Below are positions 14,054 to 31,514 of a DNA stretch of 44,709 nt, piece after piece. This DNA is from a virus. Where the stretch lies: the UHGV virus genome UHGV-0231863. One strand, given 5' to 3'. The notes below the pieces were generated by a model. The model was not told the DNA's origin and did no database searches. It saw only the letters and a program-made list of their open reading frames with translations. Every line of letters begins with the position of its first letter. The stretch's first letter is position 1. A program made the translations under genes and the position numbers.

Positions 14054-17008
14054 ATGTCAAGCGGATGCGGTGACGTTTTAAGCCTGGCGGATTTACAAAC
14101 CGCCAAGAAACATCAGATTTTCGAGGCCGAGGTTATCACTGGCAAATCCGGCGGTGTCGCCGGTGGTGCCGATATTGATTACGCGACAAATCAGGTTACT
14201 GGACAGACCCAGAAGACGTTACCTGCCGTGTTGCGTGATGCTGGTTTTAAACTGGCAGATTTTGATTTCACGTCAGGCGGTACACTATCCGCTAACGACC
14301 GAAACACCGCAGTTTTGTGGCCGTCGTCCTCTGGCGGTGACGGGGATTGGTACTATTGGTTGGGTGCTCTACCAAAAATTATCCCGGCGTCATCTTCTCC
14401 GCAGTCCACCGGTGGCGTGGCAGATGGGGCGTGGCAGCCTGTCGGGTCGGTCATACTGCGGCAGCAAATATCTGATGTAAACGGTGCAATTCTGTACCCA
14501 GATTTACATGTGGCGCGATGGAAGGACGAATACGACCCGCGCGCATGGGGCGCCGTGGGCGACGGCGTAACTGATGATACTCAATCTATTTTTAATGTAT
14601 TAGCAGCTTCCCCCAACAATTGGATTATAGACGGCAGGGGTTTGACTTATAAAGTTTCCCAATTACCTGACATTAGTAAATTTAAGAATGCTGCATTCGT
14701 TTACGAGCGCGTAGCCGGGCAACCGCTTACTTATGTAGCTGATGGCTTCTTTAACGGCTCACTAACTAAGGTGACGGATACCCCGTTCTACAACGCATGG
14801 ACGCAGGATAAAACTTTCGTCTACGACCATGTTATTTACGCCCCGTTTATGGCGGGCGAACGACATGGTGTTCAAAACTTACATGTAGCTTGGGTTCGCT
14901 CTGGAGACGACGGGCAGACTTGGTCAATGCCTGAGTGGTTGACTCCAATCCATGCTGACTATAATGCTAGTGTTTCTACGGACAGAGTTAACTACCACTG
15001 CATGAGCATGGGTACGTGCGGCAACCGATTATATGCAGTTATAGAAACCCGCTACTTATCTAATATGCAGATGAAGAAGGCAGAACTTTGGTCACGCCCA
15101 ATGCCGTATTTTAGACACCCAACCGGCGGAATAACTATTAGTTCTGGCTCCACTACTGCTACCATTGTCATAGAAAATCATGGCCTAAAAGCAGGAGATG
15201 CGGTTAACTTCTCTAATACATCGGCAACCGGCGTATCGGGTAATATGACGGTTGCGTCTATAATTAACCGAAATACGTTCACTGTTACGCTCTCAAGCCC
15301 TGCGGGCTCCACCATAAACAATGCGGGGGTTACCTGGAACTTCGCAACGCGATTCTGGGACAGCCCATGGGAAATTACCGAATTGCCGGGGGTGGCATAC
15401 TCCACTAACGCTGATTTGTGTGTCACGGAGACACATAGTTTTGCGGTTATAGATGATGCTAACTACACTATCGCTGTCGGCTATCACAACGGCGATGTGT
15501 CTCCTCGGCGTCTCGGTGTCTTGTATTTTAGTAACGTGTATGACAATCCAGGCGTATTCGTTCGTCGCACTGTCGCTCAGGCATACGCTGATAACGCTTC
15601 TGAGCCGTGTGTGAAAAGTTATGGCGGTGTGCTCTACCTTACCACACGCGGCACATTACCTACTTCCCCCGGCTCTACACTGGCGATGAGCACCGATTCT
15701 GGGCAAAACTGGAGCTACTTGCGATTCCCGAACAATGTACATCACTCCAATCTTCCGTTCGCTAAAGTAGGTGACTATCTCTACATCTTTGGTACAGAAC
15801 GTGCATTTGGTGAGTGGGAAGGTGGCGAGCCGGACAGCCGCTATGAAGGTTCGTATCCGAGGACCTTTATGTGCAAAGTCGATGTGTCGTCCTGGCCTTC
15901 ATCTTTAGATGATGTTCAGTGGTTTAATATTACCGACCAAATATACCAGGGCCATATCGTTAACACTGCCGTCGGCGTCGGCTCTGTCTGTGTTAAAGAT
16001 GGCTGGTTGTACTATATCTTTGGAGGGGAAGACTTCTTCTCTCCCTGGAGCATCGGGGATAACAGTGCGAGGTTATGGTACAAACATGATGGGCACCCGG
16101 CTGACTTATATAGCTACCGGATAAAGATTGAAGACCACCCGTATGTATCACGTGATTTCAAATACGGAGCAACTCCTAACCGTACAATACCTGTCGCCAT
16201 GGGGGTAGATGGTGTACGCCATGTAGAAGCACCTTTAACGTTTGACAATGATGTAAGCGTGTACTCCCTGCATGTAACTGGTCTGGAATACGATGGCACA
16301 CAACAGTCTGCCGTGCGTGCACGGTTTGATGGTGATTACGGGCTGATTTCAAAAACAGTCCCCACTAAAACCCCATCGGGTCAAAGACTGATAGTTAGCG
16401 GTGGTGATGGTGCATCCCGTTCCGATGGTGCGTTGCTGCAACTGTACGGGGCAAACAATGCAACACCTAACAGGGCTATTATGTATGCGTCAGGAGGCTT
16501 CTACTCATACAACAATTTCCTTCCTTACTTAGACTCGCAAGTGTCTTTAGGTTCGGCGGGTAATAGGTGGACTACGGTGTACGCTACCACCGGTACGATA
16601 AACACGTCTGATGGTACACTTAAGACGAACAAAGAGGAAATTGAGGGACAACTCCTTACCGCATGGGAGGATATACATGTAATATCTTTTAAGTGGCTTG
16701 AAAGCCTAGCAATCAAGGGTGACACTGCAAGGATACACTTCGGTGTGATAGCCCAAGATGTGCGAGACATCTTGGTCAACCATGGGCTTATGGAGGAGGG
16801 TTCTACAGACTGTAAATATGCTTTCTTGTGCTACGACTCAATTGAAGCTACGTATGATATTGATGAAGATGGTCAGACTGTACAAGTACCCCCTCCCGGC
16901 GGCAGATGGGGGGTTAGGGCGGACCAGATGTTCTTCATAGAGATTGCGTATCAGCGTAAGAAGATGCGCGAGTTCGAGAAGAGGCTGGCAGCGCTAGAAG
17001 CCAAATAA
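14054..17008 (+). CDS. tailspike with sialidase-type (Asp-box) domain and C-terminal intramolecular chaperone
   Basis: GAVGDGVTDDT entry motif; two Asp-boxes SGDDGQTW and STDSGQNW; C-terminal SDGTLKTNKEEIEG auto-cleaving chaperone motif; central part AT-rich. Confidence 0.75.
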   Translation: MSSGCGDVLSLADLQTAKKHQIFEAEVITGKSGGVAGGADIDYATNQVTGQTQKTLPAVLRDAGFKLADFDFTSGGTLSANDRNTAVLWPSSSGGDGDWYYWLGALPKIIPASSSPQSTGGVADGAWQPVGSVILRQQISDVNGAILYPDLHVARWKDEYDPRAWGAVGDGVTDDTQSIFNVLAASPNNWIIDGRGLTYKVSQLPDISKFKNAAFVYERVAGQPLTYVADGFFNGSLTKVTDTPFYNAWTQDKTFVYDHVIYAPFMAGERHGVQNLHVAWVRSGDDGQTWSMPEWLTPIHADYNASVSTDRVNYHCMSMGTCGNRLYAVIETRYLSNMQMKKAELWSRPMPYFRHPTGGITISSGSTTATIVIENHGLKAGDAVNFSNTSATGVSGNMTVASIINRNTFTVTLSSPAGSTINNAGVTWNFATRFWDSPWEITELPGVAYSTNADLCVTETHSFAVIDDANYTIAVGYHNGDVSPRRLGVLYFSNVYDNPGVFVRRTVAQAYADNASEPCVKSYGGVLYLTTRGTLPTSPGSTLAMSTDSGQNWSYLRFPNNVHHSNLPFAKVGDYLYIFGTERAFGEWEGGEPDSRYEGSYPRTFMCKVDVSSWPSSLDDVQWFNITDQIYQGHIVNTAVGVGSVCVKDGWLYYIFGGEDFFSPWSIGDNSARLWYKHDGHPADLYSYRIKIEDHPYVSRDFKYGATPNRTIPVAMGVDGVRHVEAPLTFDNDVSVYSLHVTGLEYDGTQQSAVRARFDGDYGLISKTVPTKTPSGQRLIVSGGDGASRSDGALLQLYGANNATPNRAIMYASGGFYSYNNFLPYLDSQVSLGSAGNRWTTVYATTGTINTSDGTLKTNKEEIEGQLLTAWEDIHVISFKWLESLAIKGDTARIHFGVIAQDVRDILVNHGLMEEGSTDCKYAFLCYDSIEATYDIDEDGQTVQVPPPGGRWGVRADQMFFIEIAYQRKKMREFEKRLAALEAK

Positions 17009-17036: not shown

Positions 17037-17240
17037 CTACTCTTCTGATAACTTCTCCAGTACAAACGCCAGTTGTGCATTAGCGGCGTCTCTTTGCTGC
17101 CGTAGTCGTAGAACCTCTTCTTCTAGTTCCTTGATACGTTTTATTTCTCGCTTTAACTGCATAGCAAGAAGTTGCTCGCGGGCATTAAGAGCAGATTTTA
17201 CCAATTCGTTGCAGGCGTCAATATCAAACTCATTATTCAT
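17037..17240 (-). CDS. small coiled-coil protein
   Basis: 67 aa, heptad-rich; last gene of leftward operon. Confidence 0.4.
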   Translation of the reverse strand: MNNEFDIDACNELVKSALNAREQLLAMQLKREIKRIKELEEEVLRLRQQRDAANAQLAFVLEKLSEE

Positions 17241-18661
17241 TTCTTACCTCGTCTCTTCATGTAATTAAGCAACTCTTCCTGGACCGATTTCTTCTCGTCA
17301 GTACGCGAGGCAACAACCTCGTCCAGCGTGTCTTTAGCAACGATGTGATAGAGGAACACTGGTCGCTCGTGGCCCGCCTGCTTCTGGCGCACCGGGCCTA
17401 TACGCTCGACAACCTGCAAATAGTGCTCAAGGTTCCAGCCTTGCGAAATAAACGCCAGATGATGTCCGCCGTCCTGTAAATTCAAACCATGGCCGGCTGA
17501 CGCGGGGTGCACGCATAGGATTTCGATTTCGCCACGGTTCCACGCTTCCATCTGCTTATTGCCCTTCGCGCCTTTTGCAAAAGCCTGCGCCTGCGGGAAG
17601 CGCTTGAGGATGCGCTCCAGTTCGTGCTTGAACTGATAGGCGACTAGTAACGGCGCACCCTGCAACTCCTCGGCAATGGACGCCAGCGCGTCCAGTTTCG
17701 TGTCGTGTACTTTCTCCCAGTCTTTGGTTGCTTCGCCGTCTGGCCCAGATACATATACGGCACCGGACGCAATTTGCAAGCACTTCGACGTCTTCGCCGC
17801 AGCGTTAGCAGCTTCCACTTCCCCGCTCTCAAGTTCCGCGAATAACTTCTCCTCCATATCGATGTACGCCTGACGTGCTTTCTTCGGCAGGTCGATTTCA
17901 ACCGTAACAATAATCGGCGCTTCACACCCGAACCACTCAGCGGCGTCAATAGTGAGACTAATGTCTTTCATCTTCTGATGAATCTCATTATCCGCACCCG
18001 GTCGTGCGTGATACTCCCGCGCCATCGCGGATTTCCCTTTCTGTACCGAGTTAAACCAGCGGTCTGTGAATGCCGTGTACGAAGAACCAAGGCGCTCGCC
18101 AGCGTCGATAAACCAGTTCTGCCCCCACAAGTCCTTGAGGCCGTTCGGCGACGGTGTGCCTGTCAGGTTAATGAAACGCTTAACCTTTCCGAACGCCACT
18201 TTGCTTAGCGCCTTAGCCCGTTTGCTTCCTCCAGAACGGCTACGGAAAGATTTAAGCTTCGTGCTCTCATCGGCAACGATAACGGTAAAAGGCCAGTCGT
18301 CTTTGCCGTAGTAGTCAATCAGCCACTCGATAACTTCGTAGTTGGTACACACCACGTTAGCATCTGACTCCAGCGCCGCGATACGGCGCTTCTCTGAACC
18401 TGTCGCGTCTACGACACGCAGACATGGGAAATTCCATTTCTCTTGTTCTGCGGGCCACGTACCGGACGCAACACGTAAAGGGGCCAGAATTAACACTCGG
18501 TCGTCGTCATTAAGTTGCCCATTACGGAACAGTCGATTGAGAACCCACAACGTTGACCCCGACTTACCGCTGCCCATGCTCGCCCAGATATTGCAGCGAT
18601 GGTGCCGCAGCATGAACGAAGTCATGAGCTTCTGGTATTCGCGCCTTTGAAACTTACTCAT
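17237..18661 (-). CDS. SF2 DNA helicase (SNF2/DEAD-like)
   Basis: Walker A GSGKSGST, motif II VIVADESTKLK, C-terminal helicase block. Confidence 0.75.
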   Translation of the reverse strand: MSKFQRREYQKLMTSFMLRHHRCNIWASMGSGKSGSTLWVLNRLFRNGQLNDDDRVLILAPLRVASGTWPAEQEKWNFPCLRVVDATGSEKRRIAALESDANVVCTNYEVIEWLIDYYGKDDWPFTVIVADESTKLKSFRSRSGGSKRAKALSKVAFGKVKRFINLTGTPSPNGLKDLWGQNWFIDAGERLGSSYTAFTDRWFNSVQKGKSAMAREYHARPGADNEIHQKMKDISLTIDAAEWFGCEAPIIVTVEIDLPKKARQAYIDMEEKLFAELESGEVEAANAAAKTSKCLQIASGAVYVSGPDGEATKDWEKVHDTKLDALASIAEELQGAPLLVAYQFKHELERILKRFPQAQAFAKGAKGNKQMEAWNRGEIEILCVHPASAGHGLNLQDGGHHLAFISQGWNLEHYLQVVERIGPVRQKQAGHERPVFLYHIVAKDTLDEVVASRTDEKKSVQEELLNYMKRRGKK

Positions 18662-19478
18662 TTACCGCCCCCATGAATGCCTTTATAAATTCAGCGGCTA
18701 CTTGCGGGACGATGGCATTGCCGTAACCGCGCAATCGTCCCACTCTTGCGGGTATCCCATTAGCCAGCGGGAATGCGCCGGGTTCAACCGGCCGGAACTT
18801 TCCATCACGGCATCCGAGCCAGTCAGCATCTGACCAGAAGCCGTGGTGCGGGTTGGTTGACTCGCTTTCAATCCCTGCTCTGTTGAGTAGTCCAGCCTGT
18901 CGAATGTTCTGTCCCTCCCGTCCGTGCGAATCACTGTCTCTCCGCTCCCTCTGAAGTCGTTCGCTGTCGGTGTAGGCCAGTTCGTGCGCGCCAAAGAAGA
19001 GTCGTTCTCTTTTGTGCGGTGCGCCGACGCTACAAGCTGGGAGTACAGCAAACCCGACGGCGTAGTCTTCTCCTTCCAGGTGAGCTTGTAAATCGCACAT
19101 CCACGATTTTGCAATTGCTGCCGCAACCTGCTCCCCAAAGATGACTGGAGGGCGGCACTCGCTGATGAGGTCGAGGAAGACCGGCGCGAGGTGTCTCGGG
19201 TCGAACTGTCCGAGTTGTTTTCCTGCCGTGCTAAACGGTTGGCAAGGCGGGCTTCCCGTCCAGAGAGGCGTATCCTCCGAAACTCCCGCAAGTCTGAGCG
19301 CGAGAGGCCAGCCGCCGATACCAGCGAAAAAATGACACTGGGTGAACCCGTCAAGGTCTTCTGGCTTAACTTCGGTAATGCTTCTTTCATCTACAACTCC
19401 AAAAGGTATGTGACCCTGTTTTATCAACTCACGCAGCCACGCGGCTGCGCCTTTATCCCATTCATTGTAATAGTTCAT
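18654..19478 (-). CDS. DNA (cytosine-5)-methyltransferase
   Basis: Motif I FFAGIGGW, motif [10 protein letters not shown], motif [12 protein letters not shown], motif [11 protein letters not shown]. Confidence 0.85.
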
Positions 19479-19696: not shown

Positions 19697-19981
19697 CTAA
19701 CTATAATAGTTCGCTATTAGGTCGTCAACCTGTTTAAACGAACCAACGACAAAAACATTCGCACCACGTTTACGCATACGCTCGTGCTCACGTAACTGGT
19801 GTGGGTCTGGCTTCGTGTTTTCGTCTTTCTTAACCTCGACGAACAAGACGATGCCGACGGGTAGAATTACCAGCAGGTCTGGGGCGCCGGAACGCCCCTC
19901 GTAGGAGAGTTTGCGAACGAGGCCGCCAAGGGCCTCTAATCGGTCTTTTGCGTATTTCTGTACGCGGCCCTCTTTAGTCAT
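19697..19981 (-). CDS. VRR-NUC domain nuclease
   Basis: GAPDLLVI...VEVK...Q motif pattern of the PD-(D/E)XK VRR-NUC family; start taken at internal Met of the track ORF. Confidence 0.7.
   Translation of the reverse strand: MTKEGRVQKYAKDRLEALGGLVRKLSYEGRSGAPDLLVILPVGIVLFVEVKKDENTKPDPHQLREHERMRKRGANVFVVGSFKQVDDLIANYYS
19700..19728 (-). promoter_or_regulatory. promoter TTGACG-17-TATAGT with operator AATAGttcgCTATT (19705-19718)
   Basis: Read on minus strand; overlaps 3' end of VRR-NUC gene, upstream of 19475..19666. Confidence 0.5.
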
Positions 19982-20130
19982 GAGCGTAGATCCCAAGTAA
20001 GGAAAGCCCCTCCTAGAACGGCGACACCGACAAACTTAAAGAACAGGCCGTAACAGAACATCGCGGCTATTCCCGCACCGAGTAACAGCGCGAGCATGGT
20101 TACTATCGTCCAAAATACAAACATTGTCAT
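19978..20130 (-). CDS. small membrane protein (approximate coordinates)
   Basis: ~50-codon hydrophobic ORF read by eye; stop overlaps VRR-NUC start. Confidence 0.3.
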   Translation of the reverse strand: MTMFVFWTIVTMLALLLGAGIAAMFCYGLFFKFVGVAVLGGAFLTWDLRS

Positions 20131-31018: not shown

Positions 31019-31221
31019 TGACCAGCATCTTATTTATCTGGGTACTGTCGGCGGGCAAGATGCAACTAGCGGCATCGGAAACGTTTTATTCGACGGAGGC
31101 GTGCCAGTCCGCGGCACGCGCCGCAGAGAACGCACACTTCCTGTTTCAGGGCGACAAGCCCAACGATTCAGAGGTACGCGCTATCTGCTCACCTAAGCGA
31201 CTTGGCAATCAGGAGAAATAA
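31018..31221 (+). CDS. small protein with signal-peptide-like N-terminus
   Basis: Hydrophobic N-terminus MTSILFIWVLSAGKMQLAAS; TGATG coupling. Confidence 0.35.
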   Translation: MTSILFIWVLSAGKMQLAASETFYSTEACQSAARAAENAHFLFQGDKPNDSEVRAICSPKRLGNQEK

Positions 31222-31514
31222 TGTCGTTAGCAACTGACATCCTGAAACGAAGCGGCCTTGCGCCGCTGTCGCCGAGAGCTAAAACACGGGTATACAAGCG
31301 CCACCGTAACGCTCTGTACCCTGAGATTCAGGCCAGACGTAAAGCTATCCGCGCCTGTGGATTCCAGAACGGGAAGGCCGTGAATCTCGGTGAGTTCAAA
31401 ACACAGGAACGTGCAGCTATAGCTAATCGGTTATTTAATTACTGGAAATCGCTTGGATACGATGATATTCCAACGAAACCCCAGAGACGACAATACATCT
31501 GGAGACATAAATAA
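31221..31514 (+). CDS. hypothetical basic protein
   Basis: 97-aa Arg/Lys-rich ORF. Confidence 0.45.
   Translation: MSLATDILKRSGLAPLSPRAKTRVYKRHRNALYPEIQARRKAIRACGFQNGKAVNLGEFKTQERAAIANRLFNYWKSLGYDDIPTKPQRRQYIWRHK

Follow-up and report, generated by a model that had tools for sequence, protein, structure and literature searches.

The C5-cytosine methyltransferases consist of two domains, a large domain in which the majority of the conserved motifs are found and a small domain formed by the variable region together with motif IX; the small domain makes all of the specific contacts with DNA (PMC3404938). M.EcoHK31I, from the type II restriction-modification system of E. coli HK31 that recognizes YGGCCR, is a C5-methyltransferase composed of two polypeptides (PMC2836561, PMC3404938). 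Its beta subunit is encoded entirely within the alpha gene in another reading frame and is required for activity; alpha contains motifs I-VIII and X as well as the target recognition domain (TRD), and beta contains motif IX (PMC2836561, PMC3404938). Beta can do without its first 42 residues, and translation can begin at internal Met codons (PMC2836561). M.EcoHK31I is the one characterized C5-methyltransferase in which a motif IX subunit is nested in the catalytic gene. M.AquI is a natural two-subunit enzyme that is split in the variable region, with motifs I-VIII in alpha and IX-X in beta, and fragment complementation has been reported for the monomeric enzymes M.BspRI, M.BsuRI, M.HhaI and M.SssI (PMC3404938). 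Here we describe a phage gene of related architecture in UHGV virus genome UHGV-0231863, a stretch of 44,709 nucleotides (the window) from a Kagunavirus (K1G/K1H-like coliphage, Guernseyvirinae). The gene is an open reading frame (ORF) at 18654..19478 on the minus strand that runs from ATG to stop and encodes a C5-methyltransferase of 274 amino acids. A second ORF of 230 codons is nested in its +1 frame, and both are conserved and under purifying selection. We refer to the 274-residue ORF as frame A and to the nested ORF as frame B; all features of the two frames given below are on the minus strand.

Frame B occupies 18698..19390 and lies entirely inside frame A, with which it shares ~690 nucleotides. 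It starts 88 nucleotides downstream of the frame A start, one base off phase, and its stop at 18698 is located 44 nucleotides before the end of frame A. The encoded protein is basic (pI 10.4) and matched phrog_1008 with an E value of 3.7e-54, whereas no family was found for it in Pfam or NCBIfam. In the window, the +1 frame contained four stops in the 29 codons before frame B and none in the following 230. The same pattern was observed across loci, in which stops crowd the stretch immediately upstream of the start of frame B and are missing after it; over 90 loci the +1 frame was stop-free over a median of 0.89 of the gene, compared to 0.19 for the +2 frame. When frame A of the window was subjected to synonymous-codon shuffling, the mean open length was 90 codons and 0 of 2000 shuffles reached 230. 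Four other loci also gave 0/2000, in genes of 45-59% GC. The test was weak for the GC-rich genes L006, L091 and L088, in which 74-194 of 2000 shuffles reached the observed length.

Loci were fetched from IMG/VR, 80 of them via frame-B peptides and 79 via frame-A peptides alone, and this retrieval by conserved peptide patterns favours conserved members. A +1 frame B was present in all of the loci chosen through B (80/80) and in all of those chosen through A (79/79), i.e. in 159/159, with an overlap between the two frames of 666-1041 nucleotides in the B-selected set. Matches of frame B in a tblastn search of phage genomes always fell under annotated C5-methyltransferase genes. The +1 placement was found in every case checked, including Klebsiella Soft, Vibrio Baybae, Rhodobacter RcCWillis, KlebP_265, Edwardsiella eiAU, the T4-like Aragogtheria, Vequintavirus pangalan and Pseudomonas phita81A. 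Frame B is also present in T4-like and Vequintavirus genes with a GC content of 45-49%.

Selection on the two frames was examined with a codon alignment of 76 genes that were less than 80% identical and ranged from 45 to 68% GC. Third positions of frame A varied normally in motifs I-IV (commonest base 0.3-0.6), but where frame B is conserved they were almost invariant (0.9-1.0). Conservation was often higher in frame B than in the frame A residues that it overlaps, e.g. at column 127 (A 0.63, B 0.96) and at column 134 (A 0.78, B an invariant Trp at 1.00). The sites that vary within conserved blocks are silent in both frames, such as the first bases of columns 229, 238, 245 and 249 (0.57-0.74). 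We also used our own implementation of an OLGenie-style estimator with 33 independent pairs and bootstrapping over columns. In the resulting ratios N and S denote nonsynonymous and synonymous changes, frame A being given first, such that dNN/dSN reports on frame A and dNN/dNS on frame B. Frame A columns 40-105 yielded 0.11 for A and a non-significant 0.90 (0.70-1.16) for B, and this block served as the internal control for estimator bias. The respective values were 0.31 and 0.52 (0.39-0.69) in columns 107-160, 1.03 (0.78-1.34) and 0.57 (0.34-0.80) in columns 165-207, and 0.49 (0.32-0.73) and 0.32 (0.23-0.45) in columns 208-250. These ratios are approximate, as doubly synonymous sites were saturated and the linker alignment was poor; the mosaic itself is clear. 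Divergence at sites synonymous in A and nonsynonymous in B dropped from 0.66 to 0.22. From these data we conclude that the locus is dual coded, with both ORFs universal among the loci retrieved, and that purifying selection acts on both frames as a mosaic, which runs from A alone to both, then to B alone, to both again and back to A alone.

The frame-B ATG (19388-19390) is the only ATG in frame B before residue 188 and is situated ~20 codons upstream of motif I. A GGAG Shine-Dalgarno (SD) core is present 6 nucleotides upstream of it (19397..19400), the sequence being TTGGAGTTGTAG followed by ATG. Both signals are embedded in frame A codons; the core is formed by the codons for Phe-Gly-Val, and the ATG arises from a conserved Val-Asp-Glu in which GTA GAT GAA contains TAG ATG. 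Among 127 unique loci, a strong SD core preceded the first frame-B ATG in 43%, compared to 10% at other frame-B codons, a fourfold difference. In the same loci this ATG was located a median of 7 codons past the upstream stop and recurred 14-24 codons before motif I. Of the loci searched, 0/142 had a canonical -1 slippery heptamer (XXXYYYZ) close to the point of return from B to A; the search did not extend to +1 shift signals. Because frame B has its own ATG, SD cores are enriched before it and the -1 heptamer was not found, independent initiation is the best-supported explanation for how frame B is made.

Frame A contains the catalytic portion of the enzyme. It matched the C-5 cytosine DNA methylase family PF00145 of Pfam (E 4.1e-17, 63 bits with a cut-off of 22) and, from end to end, phrog_363 'DNA methyltransferase' (E 4.5e-88). 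The PF00145 match spans only residues 73-168 (profile 65-164 of 324), and the match to TIGR00675 of NCBIfam, at 39.6 bits, was under the cut-off of 100.65 and covered only profile positions 25-161 of 329. An hhalign comparison with M.HhaI, for which we used a sequence identical to PDB 10mh_A, placed residues 36-166 of frame A against residues 3-173 of that enzyme (98.6% probability, E 6e-16), and nothing further aligned. From these matches we assign frame A as the candidate alpha-like subunit with the large, catalytic domain that binds S-adenosylmethionine (AdoMet). Motif I, the AdoMet-binding FFAGIGGW (19308..19331), is invariant and aligned to FAGLGGF of M.HhaI. Motif IV, SPPCQPFS (19230..19253), aligned to GFPCQAFS and contains the catalytic Cys79; C79, Q80 and P81 are invariant. 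Motif VI is the ENV variant FGEQV (19125..19139, aligned to FMENV), with conservation of 1.00 for G115, E116, Q117 and V118 (76 sequences), and motif VIII is PHKRERLFF (18993..19019, aligned to PQKRERIYM), in which R157 and R159 are conserved at 1.00.

Residues 166-208 of frame A (18855..18983) form a linker of low complexity, a shadow of frame B in which no constraint on the amino acids could be detected (dNN/dSN 1.03). The linker is followed by the conserved C-terminal block FW.DADWL.CRDGK.RPVEPG.FPLA.G (18756..18839, dNN/dSN 0.49), in which conservation reaches.99 for W215,.91 for D219,.95 for W220,.96 for C223,.95 for R224,.99 for D225 and.99 for R229. The sequence GYGNAIVPQ (18702..18728) corresponds to motif X by pattern only, as no profile tool aligned this motif; conservation over 76 sequences is.99 for Y252, 1.0 for G253 and N254,.99 for A255 and.97 for I256. 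Motif IX was undetected in frame A, and the alignments to Pfam, TIGR00675 and M.HhaI all end by residue 168. An earlier note on this DNA, in which the 230-residue nested ORF was not mentioned, had described a compact 274-residue Dcm-type methyltransferase with all core motifs. The ORF and its membership in PF00145 hold, whereas its description as one complete enzyme is not supported: motif IX is absent, the VIII-X region cannot be aligned, only the N-terminal half aligns to Pfam, TIGR00675 and M.HhaI, and a conserved and selected +1 protein is nested within it.

The N-terminus of frame A appears to be permuted relative to M.HhaI. The sequence YYNEWD (19455..19472) resembles motif II of M.HhaI (YSNEWD) and is found ahead of motif I, as is a VDERSI..V..DL stretch. 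Between motifs I and IV the hhalign alignment contains a 36-residue gap that corresponds to M.HhaI residues 34-69 (motifs II-III). TIGR00675 aligned frame A from residue 3 to profile position 25 onward, in a HMMER match that was not significant. Distant relatives from phages of Gram-positive hosts have the canonical N-terminal order, with motif I first.

Frame B, the candidate beta-like subunit, can be divided into four parts. The Ser-rich N-terminal tail (residues 1-74, 19169..19390) stays open, and its amino acids are unconstrained; the non-significant dNN/dNS of 0.90 over residues ~10-75 is an evolutionary proxy for a dispensable N-terminus, and predicted local distance difference test (pLDDT) scores of the AlphaFold2 (AF2) model were mostly <50. 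A conserved block in the LQSSL..RL....L.ASAHRT region (19013..19150), predicted to form a helix and a beta-hairpin, overlaps motifs VI-VIII of frame A. Its consensus is L.S.L..RL....GS.LY.LTWK...TP.GR....L.AS..RT, with conservation of 1.00 for W134,.93 for K,.96 for T,.92 for P,.96 for S127,.96 for A150 and.97 for S151. The dNN/dNS ratio of this block is 0.52, and it is the sole part of frame B that was confidently modelled by AF2 (pLDDT 71-89). A WPTP module, WPTP.A.D.KG, is present as a single copy in the window (18941..18982). The W, P, T and P of the module are conserved at 1.00,.71, 1.00 and.83, and the same columns read in frame A at only.70,.76,.42 and.42. The last block (18728..18793) consists of residues conserved at 0.91-1.00 in the 76 genes and has a dNN/dNS of 0.32. 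It shares the layout of M.HhaI motif IX, LHPRECARVMGYPDSY, and its identity as motif IX is plausible from that layout, the match being not statistically significant.

Relatives contain 0-7 WPTP-like modules in frame B. We counted ~8 by eye in L172, in which frame B is 486 amino acids long. There, frame A is open through ~300 codons of 'GLADT' shadow before its C-terminal block is reached, and the third frame is full of stops. Both frames thus remain open as the gene expands to ~540 codons. Because frame A stays open through this shadow sequence, both full-length reading frames matter.

The nested arrangement is widespread. A frame-B profile matched 21,702 representatives of 50%-identity clusters at E <=1e-3 (8,079 at 1e-30) among 1.84 billion, and frame A has at least 8,000 homologs, with PF00145 present in 120/120 among the matches listed. 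PF00145 was not found in the same polypeptide as frame B in any homolog with visible Pfam content, and no polypeptide in which frame B is fused in frame with a C5 catalytic domain was found among the matches listed and the extended members tested. Relatives of frame A at 25-31% identity also carry the ORF nested in +1, and its three blocks recur there, as in Mycobacterium phage SG4 gp64, Lacticaseibacillus R23.9, Paenibacillus Callan and uncultured phage ctjLE16; the blocks in SG4 gp64 read WHTPTTNDFKP ... NPVWIEWLMGFPPNWTD. The ORF was identified in 15/15 mycobacteriophage-type genes and, by regular expression, in 12/15 Paenibacillus-type genes, the other three being recognized by eye. We had considered these relatives from phages of Gram-positive hosts as outgroups lacking frame B, and they were rejected for that purpose since frame B is present. 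An edge of the nested architecture was not reached among the relatives sampled. One Paenibacillus-type relative has MQGFPIGW at a motif-IX-like position, which we take to be close to the canonical motif IX core, LQGFP. In the other relatives from phages of Gram-positive hosts the VIII-X region looked similar to that of SG4; they were not examined for the CRDGK block.

Several unusual family members were also encountered. At two loci (L174:2501-3994 and L008:1228-2652) frame B reads on into a Dam-type N6-adenine methyltransferase (PF05869 E 4.4e-53; TIGR01712), and the C5 catalytic frame stays nested inside the fusion. These natural fusions connect frame B with DNA methylation. At four further loci a Dam-like ORF follows within 900 nucleotides downstream. 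A frame-B homolog of 758 amino acids (P0366) has a C-terminal DUF2800 / PD-(D/E)XK nuclease (E 4.6e-50), probably the result of read-through into a neighbouring recombination gene. The 'cytosine methylase' at 31175-31345 of NC_023841.1 (Dunaliella viridis virus SI2, a record named for an algal virus and thus with an odd host assignment) is 68% identical to frame A residues 210-266 only; the match covers the doubly constrained block, the last 57 residues. L216 (IMGVR_UViG_2974763951_000001), at 601-1357, is 98% identical to SG4 gp64 and one base longer, and its +1 stretch continues into the C-terminus of frame A (LFALGNAVVPQISEHIGRMI); the extra base is due either to an indel from sequencing or to a fusion of the frames in nature. 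A plasmid search returned 28 records, mostly plasmids of 43-70 kb or Ralstonia megaplasmids, with no evident restriction-modification context; the contexts were not examined.

Because M.EcoHK31I provides a precedent, we consider it rather probable that one dual-coded gene gives rise here to a two-subunit orphan methyltransferase, of which the assembly, activity and target are inferred. Frame A would provide the large domain, comprising motif I, the catalytic Cys of motif IV, motifs VI and VIII, a linker free of constraint and, last, motif X. Frame B, translated from its own ATG at 19390, would consist of a dispensable Ser-rich tail, the helix-hairpin block, one WPTP module and a motif-IX-like helix, and probably supplies the part of the enzyme that is missing from frame A. 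The constrained part of frame B coincides with the position of the small domain in a canonical gene, and would represent the small DNA-recognition domain, which in a canonical enzyme is found between motif VIII and motif X. The determinants of target recognition may perhaps lie largely in frame B rather than in the annotated frame A. The two polypeptides would assemble into an active enzyme as do M.EcoHK31I alpha and beta. This enzyme may then methylate replicating phage DNA without a partner endonuclease, presumably in a protective role; replicating DNA is the suggested substrate because the gene sits between helicase and polymerase genes.

Several results weigh against a two-subunit enzyme. 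When the frame B profile was compared to M.HhaI by hhalign, the sole match, B residues 200-218 to M.HhaI residues 272-290 (motif IX), had an E value of 0.14 and a probability of 0.4%. The profile had no match among PDB sequences at E <=10, and neither a virtual A-B-A chimera nor C-terminal fragments gave any extra PF00145 match in Pfam. AF2 models of frame A alone (54 sequences; pLDDT 41.9, predicted template modelling score (pTM) 0.32) and of frame B alone (74-sequence alignment; pLDDT 53.9, pTM 0.22) were too poor for fold comparison. In addition, the variable WPTP modules are on frame B here, whereas the TRD of M.EcoHK31I is on alpha, and the conserved C-terminal block of frame A (W..DW..CRDGK.R) might itself be a minimal recognition element, which would make frame A self-sufficient. 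A chimera of B with the C-terminus of A matched only an aquaporin in PDB at E 0.45, which we dismissed as chance.

If frame A were self-sufficient, both proteins would still be made; frame A alone would be a complete minimal methyltransferase that uses its C-terminal block for recognition, and frame B would be an independent accessory, such as a basic protein that binds DNA and adjusts specificity or processivity, a helper of other methyltransferases such as Dam, or a protein with an unrelated role. The conservation of and selection on the C-terminal block fit this explanation, as do the basic character of frame B, its fusion to a Dam-type adenine methyltransferase in two loci and the statistical weakness of the motif IX assignment. 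Mycobacteriophage SG4, however, has no equivalent of the CRDGK block and its VIII-X stretch looks like pure shadow, yet frame B is kept. Moreover, except for the two Dam fusions and the one nuclease fusion, all contexts inspected have frame B nested in a C5-methyltransferase gene, and the sole nested case that was studied experimentally requires both chains (PMC2836561). We therefore regard a self-sufficient frame A with an accessory frame B as unlikely.

The two frames could also be joined into a single chain by programmed frameshifting, with frame A read through motif VIII, a +1 shift into B for the WPTP module and motif IX, and a -1 shift back to A for motif X. Such a product would recreate the canonical order I-VIII, TRD, IX, X, and in the middle of the gene each frame is unconstrained exactly where the other would be used. 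This explanation is nevertheless very unlikely, given the 0/142 result for the -1 heptamer at the B-to-A junction (with +1 signals outside that search) and given that frame B is open for ~100 codons upstream of any useful shift point and has its own ATG and SD core. In the two blocks that they share, both frames are also under selection, for which there would be no need if a single mosaic product were made, and frame A of L172 is open through ~300 codons of what would be junk. Finally, the locus might be a plain single-gene methyltransferase, frame B being a shadow ORF without function that is open only through the sequence and composition of frame A. This idea is already contradicted by the data, and we give it hardly any credence. 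No shuffle in 2000 reproduced frame B in the window or in genes of 45-59% GC, and its sequence is conserved across 45-68% GC, often above that of frame A. The drop in A-synonymous/B-nonsynonymous divergence and the dNN/dNS values of 0.32-0.57, versus 0.90 in the control block, are further evidence of selection on frame B, and the WPTP modules expand as repeats in frame B, with frame A showing only their shadow. What could be said for a shadow ORF is that the +1 frame can be open by chance in the GC-rich genes L006, L091 and L088, and that frame B has no Pfam or NCBIfam family.

The region of the locus is 93-97% identical to phages MirsaeidiM_Esher4, K1H, K1ind and K1G. Frame A is flanked by an SNF2 helicase gene (17237-18661) on one side and by a VRR-NUC nuclease gene and a family-A DNA polymerase gene on the other, and is tightly packed in the operon, with an ATGA overlap with the upstream ORF and an 8-nucleotide overlap with the helicase gene. 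No restriction endonuclease was found among these neighbours. The proposal that an orphan C5-methyltransferase lies in the replication operon is therefore borne out by the family matches and by the neighbouring genes, and it is reasonable to suppose, as the earlier note did, that the enzyme methylates the phage's own DNA to evade host restriction. The VRR-NUC match (22.6 bits) of the 99-residue ORF at 19697-19996 on the minus strand was just under the Pfam threshold of 23.8. This ORF is labelled Holliday junction resolvase elsewhere and is the sole nuclease near the methyltransferase; its type is not that of a restriction enzyme. Just upstream on the opposite strand, a 984-residue ORF (14054-17008, plus strand) corresponds to the K1H 'tail protein' and is, we presume from K1-specific phages, an endosialidase tailspike.

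Annotation of the two frames is inconsistent. The GenBank records of K1H, K1G, K1ind and fTaEco01 annotate both ORFs without comment, as 'C-specific methylase' and 'Mte8-like protein'. In Burkholderia vB_SR1 (L091:1114-2298, PQ789825.1) frame B is a 'putative metabolic enzyme', and the intact C5-methyltransferase in the -1 frame has no CDS. Elsewhere frame B is called 'Mte8-like', 'DNA methyltransferase' or 'hypothetical protein', and its annotation sometimes replaces the true methyltransferase call. In the literature 'Mte8-like' was found as an annotation label only. A search found no report of a nested gene or overlap in phage methyltransferases, which is weak evidence as most subscription journals were outside its coverage. 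The principle is already known from one bacterial enzyme, M.EcoHK31I, and what appears to be new is the phage orphan case with a large family.

As a natural case of extended dual coding on the same strand the locus is a strong one, since the overlap is conserved between mycobacteriophages and coliphages and the constraint mosaic is clear. We tentatively suggest, as a possibility that we do not yet favour, that most compact phage 'orphan' C5-methyltransferases, from both Gram-negative and Gram-positive hosts, are obligate two-subunit, dual-coded enzymes, in which 0-7 WPTP modules that expand and contract in the nested subunit carry recognition, placing target specificity (perhaps multispecificity) in the alternative frame. 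If this is true, few same-strand overlaps known in prokaryotic viruses would be as long and as widespread as those of these genes, and thousands of database entries would cover only half of an enzyme. If frame B is required, expression, assay or specificity prediction based on the 274-residue protein alone would work only by accident, because the cloned gene carries frame B along, and this would hold equally for thousands of related phage genes. Codon-optimized synthetic genes, which destroy frame B, could then give inactive enzyme.

Compared to known systems, the locus has features of each without coinciding with any of them. It resembles ordinary orphan phage Dcm-type methyltransferases in its catalytic motifs, phage context, lack of a partner endonuclease and presumed anti-restriction role, but unlike single-polypeptide PF00145 orphans its annotated frame matches the family only in the N-terminal half and has a second conserved protein inside it. 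The multispecific C5-methyltransferases of Bacillus phages SPR, phi3T and rho11s contain variable tandem modules between motifs VIII and IX, one for each target; these modules are in the same polypeptide, and to our knowledge they have no evident sequence similarity to the WPTP modules. Whereas the fragments of M.BspRI, M.BsuRI, M.HhaI and M.SssI were engineered, the split here is natural, ancient and in overlapping frames. It also differs from the linear split of M.AquI, whose alpha and beta subunits were reportedly described by Karreman and de Waard in 1990, in that motif X remains with the catalytic chain and the second gene lies entirely within the first instead of after it. The closest likeness, by architecture, is to M.EcoHK31I, the original characterization of which is said to be that of Lee, Kam and Shaw in 1995. 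In both cases the second ORF lies wholly inside the catalytic gene in another frame and the larger chain has motifs I-VIII together with X, and the unconstrained Ser-rich tail of frame B parallels the dispensable residues 1-42 of M.EcoHK31I beta. Frame B differs from that subunit in having an extra conserved hairpin block and in carrying the variable WPTP modules, the TRD of M.EcoHK31I being on alpha. M.EcoHK31I belongs to a restriction-modification system with a cognate endonuclease, whereas the phage gene is an orphan in a replication module. Finally, M.EcoHK31I has been treated as a rare exception, whereas the frame-B family is very large, with >21,000 clusters at 50% identity.

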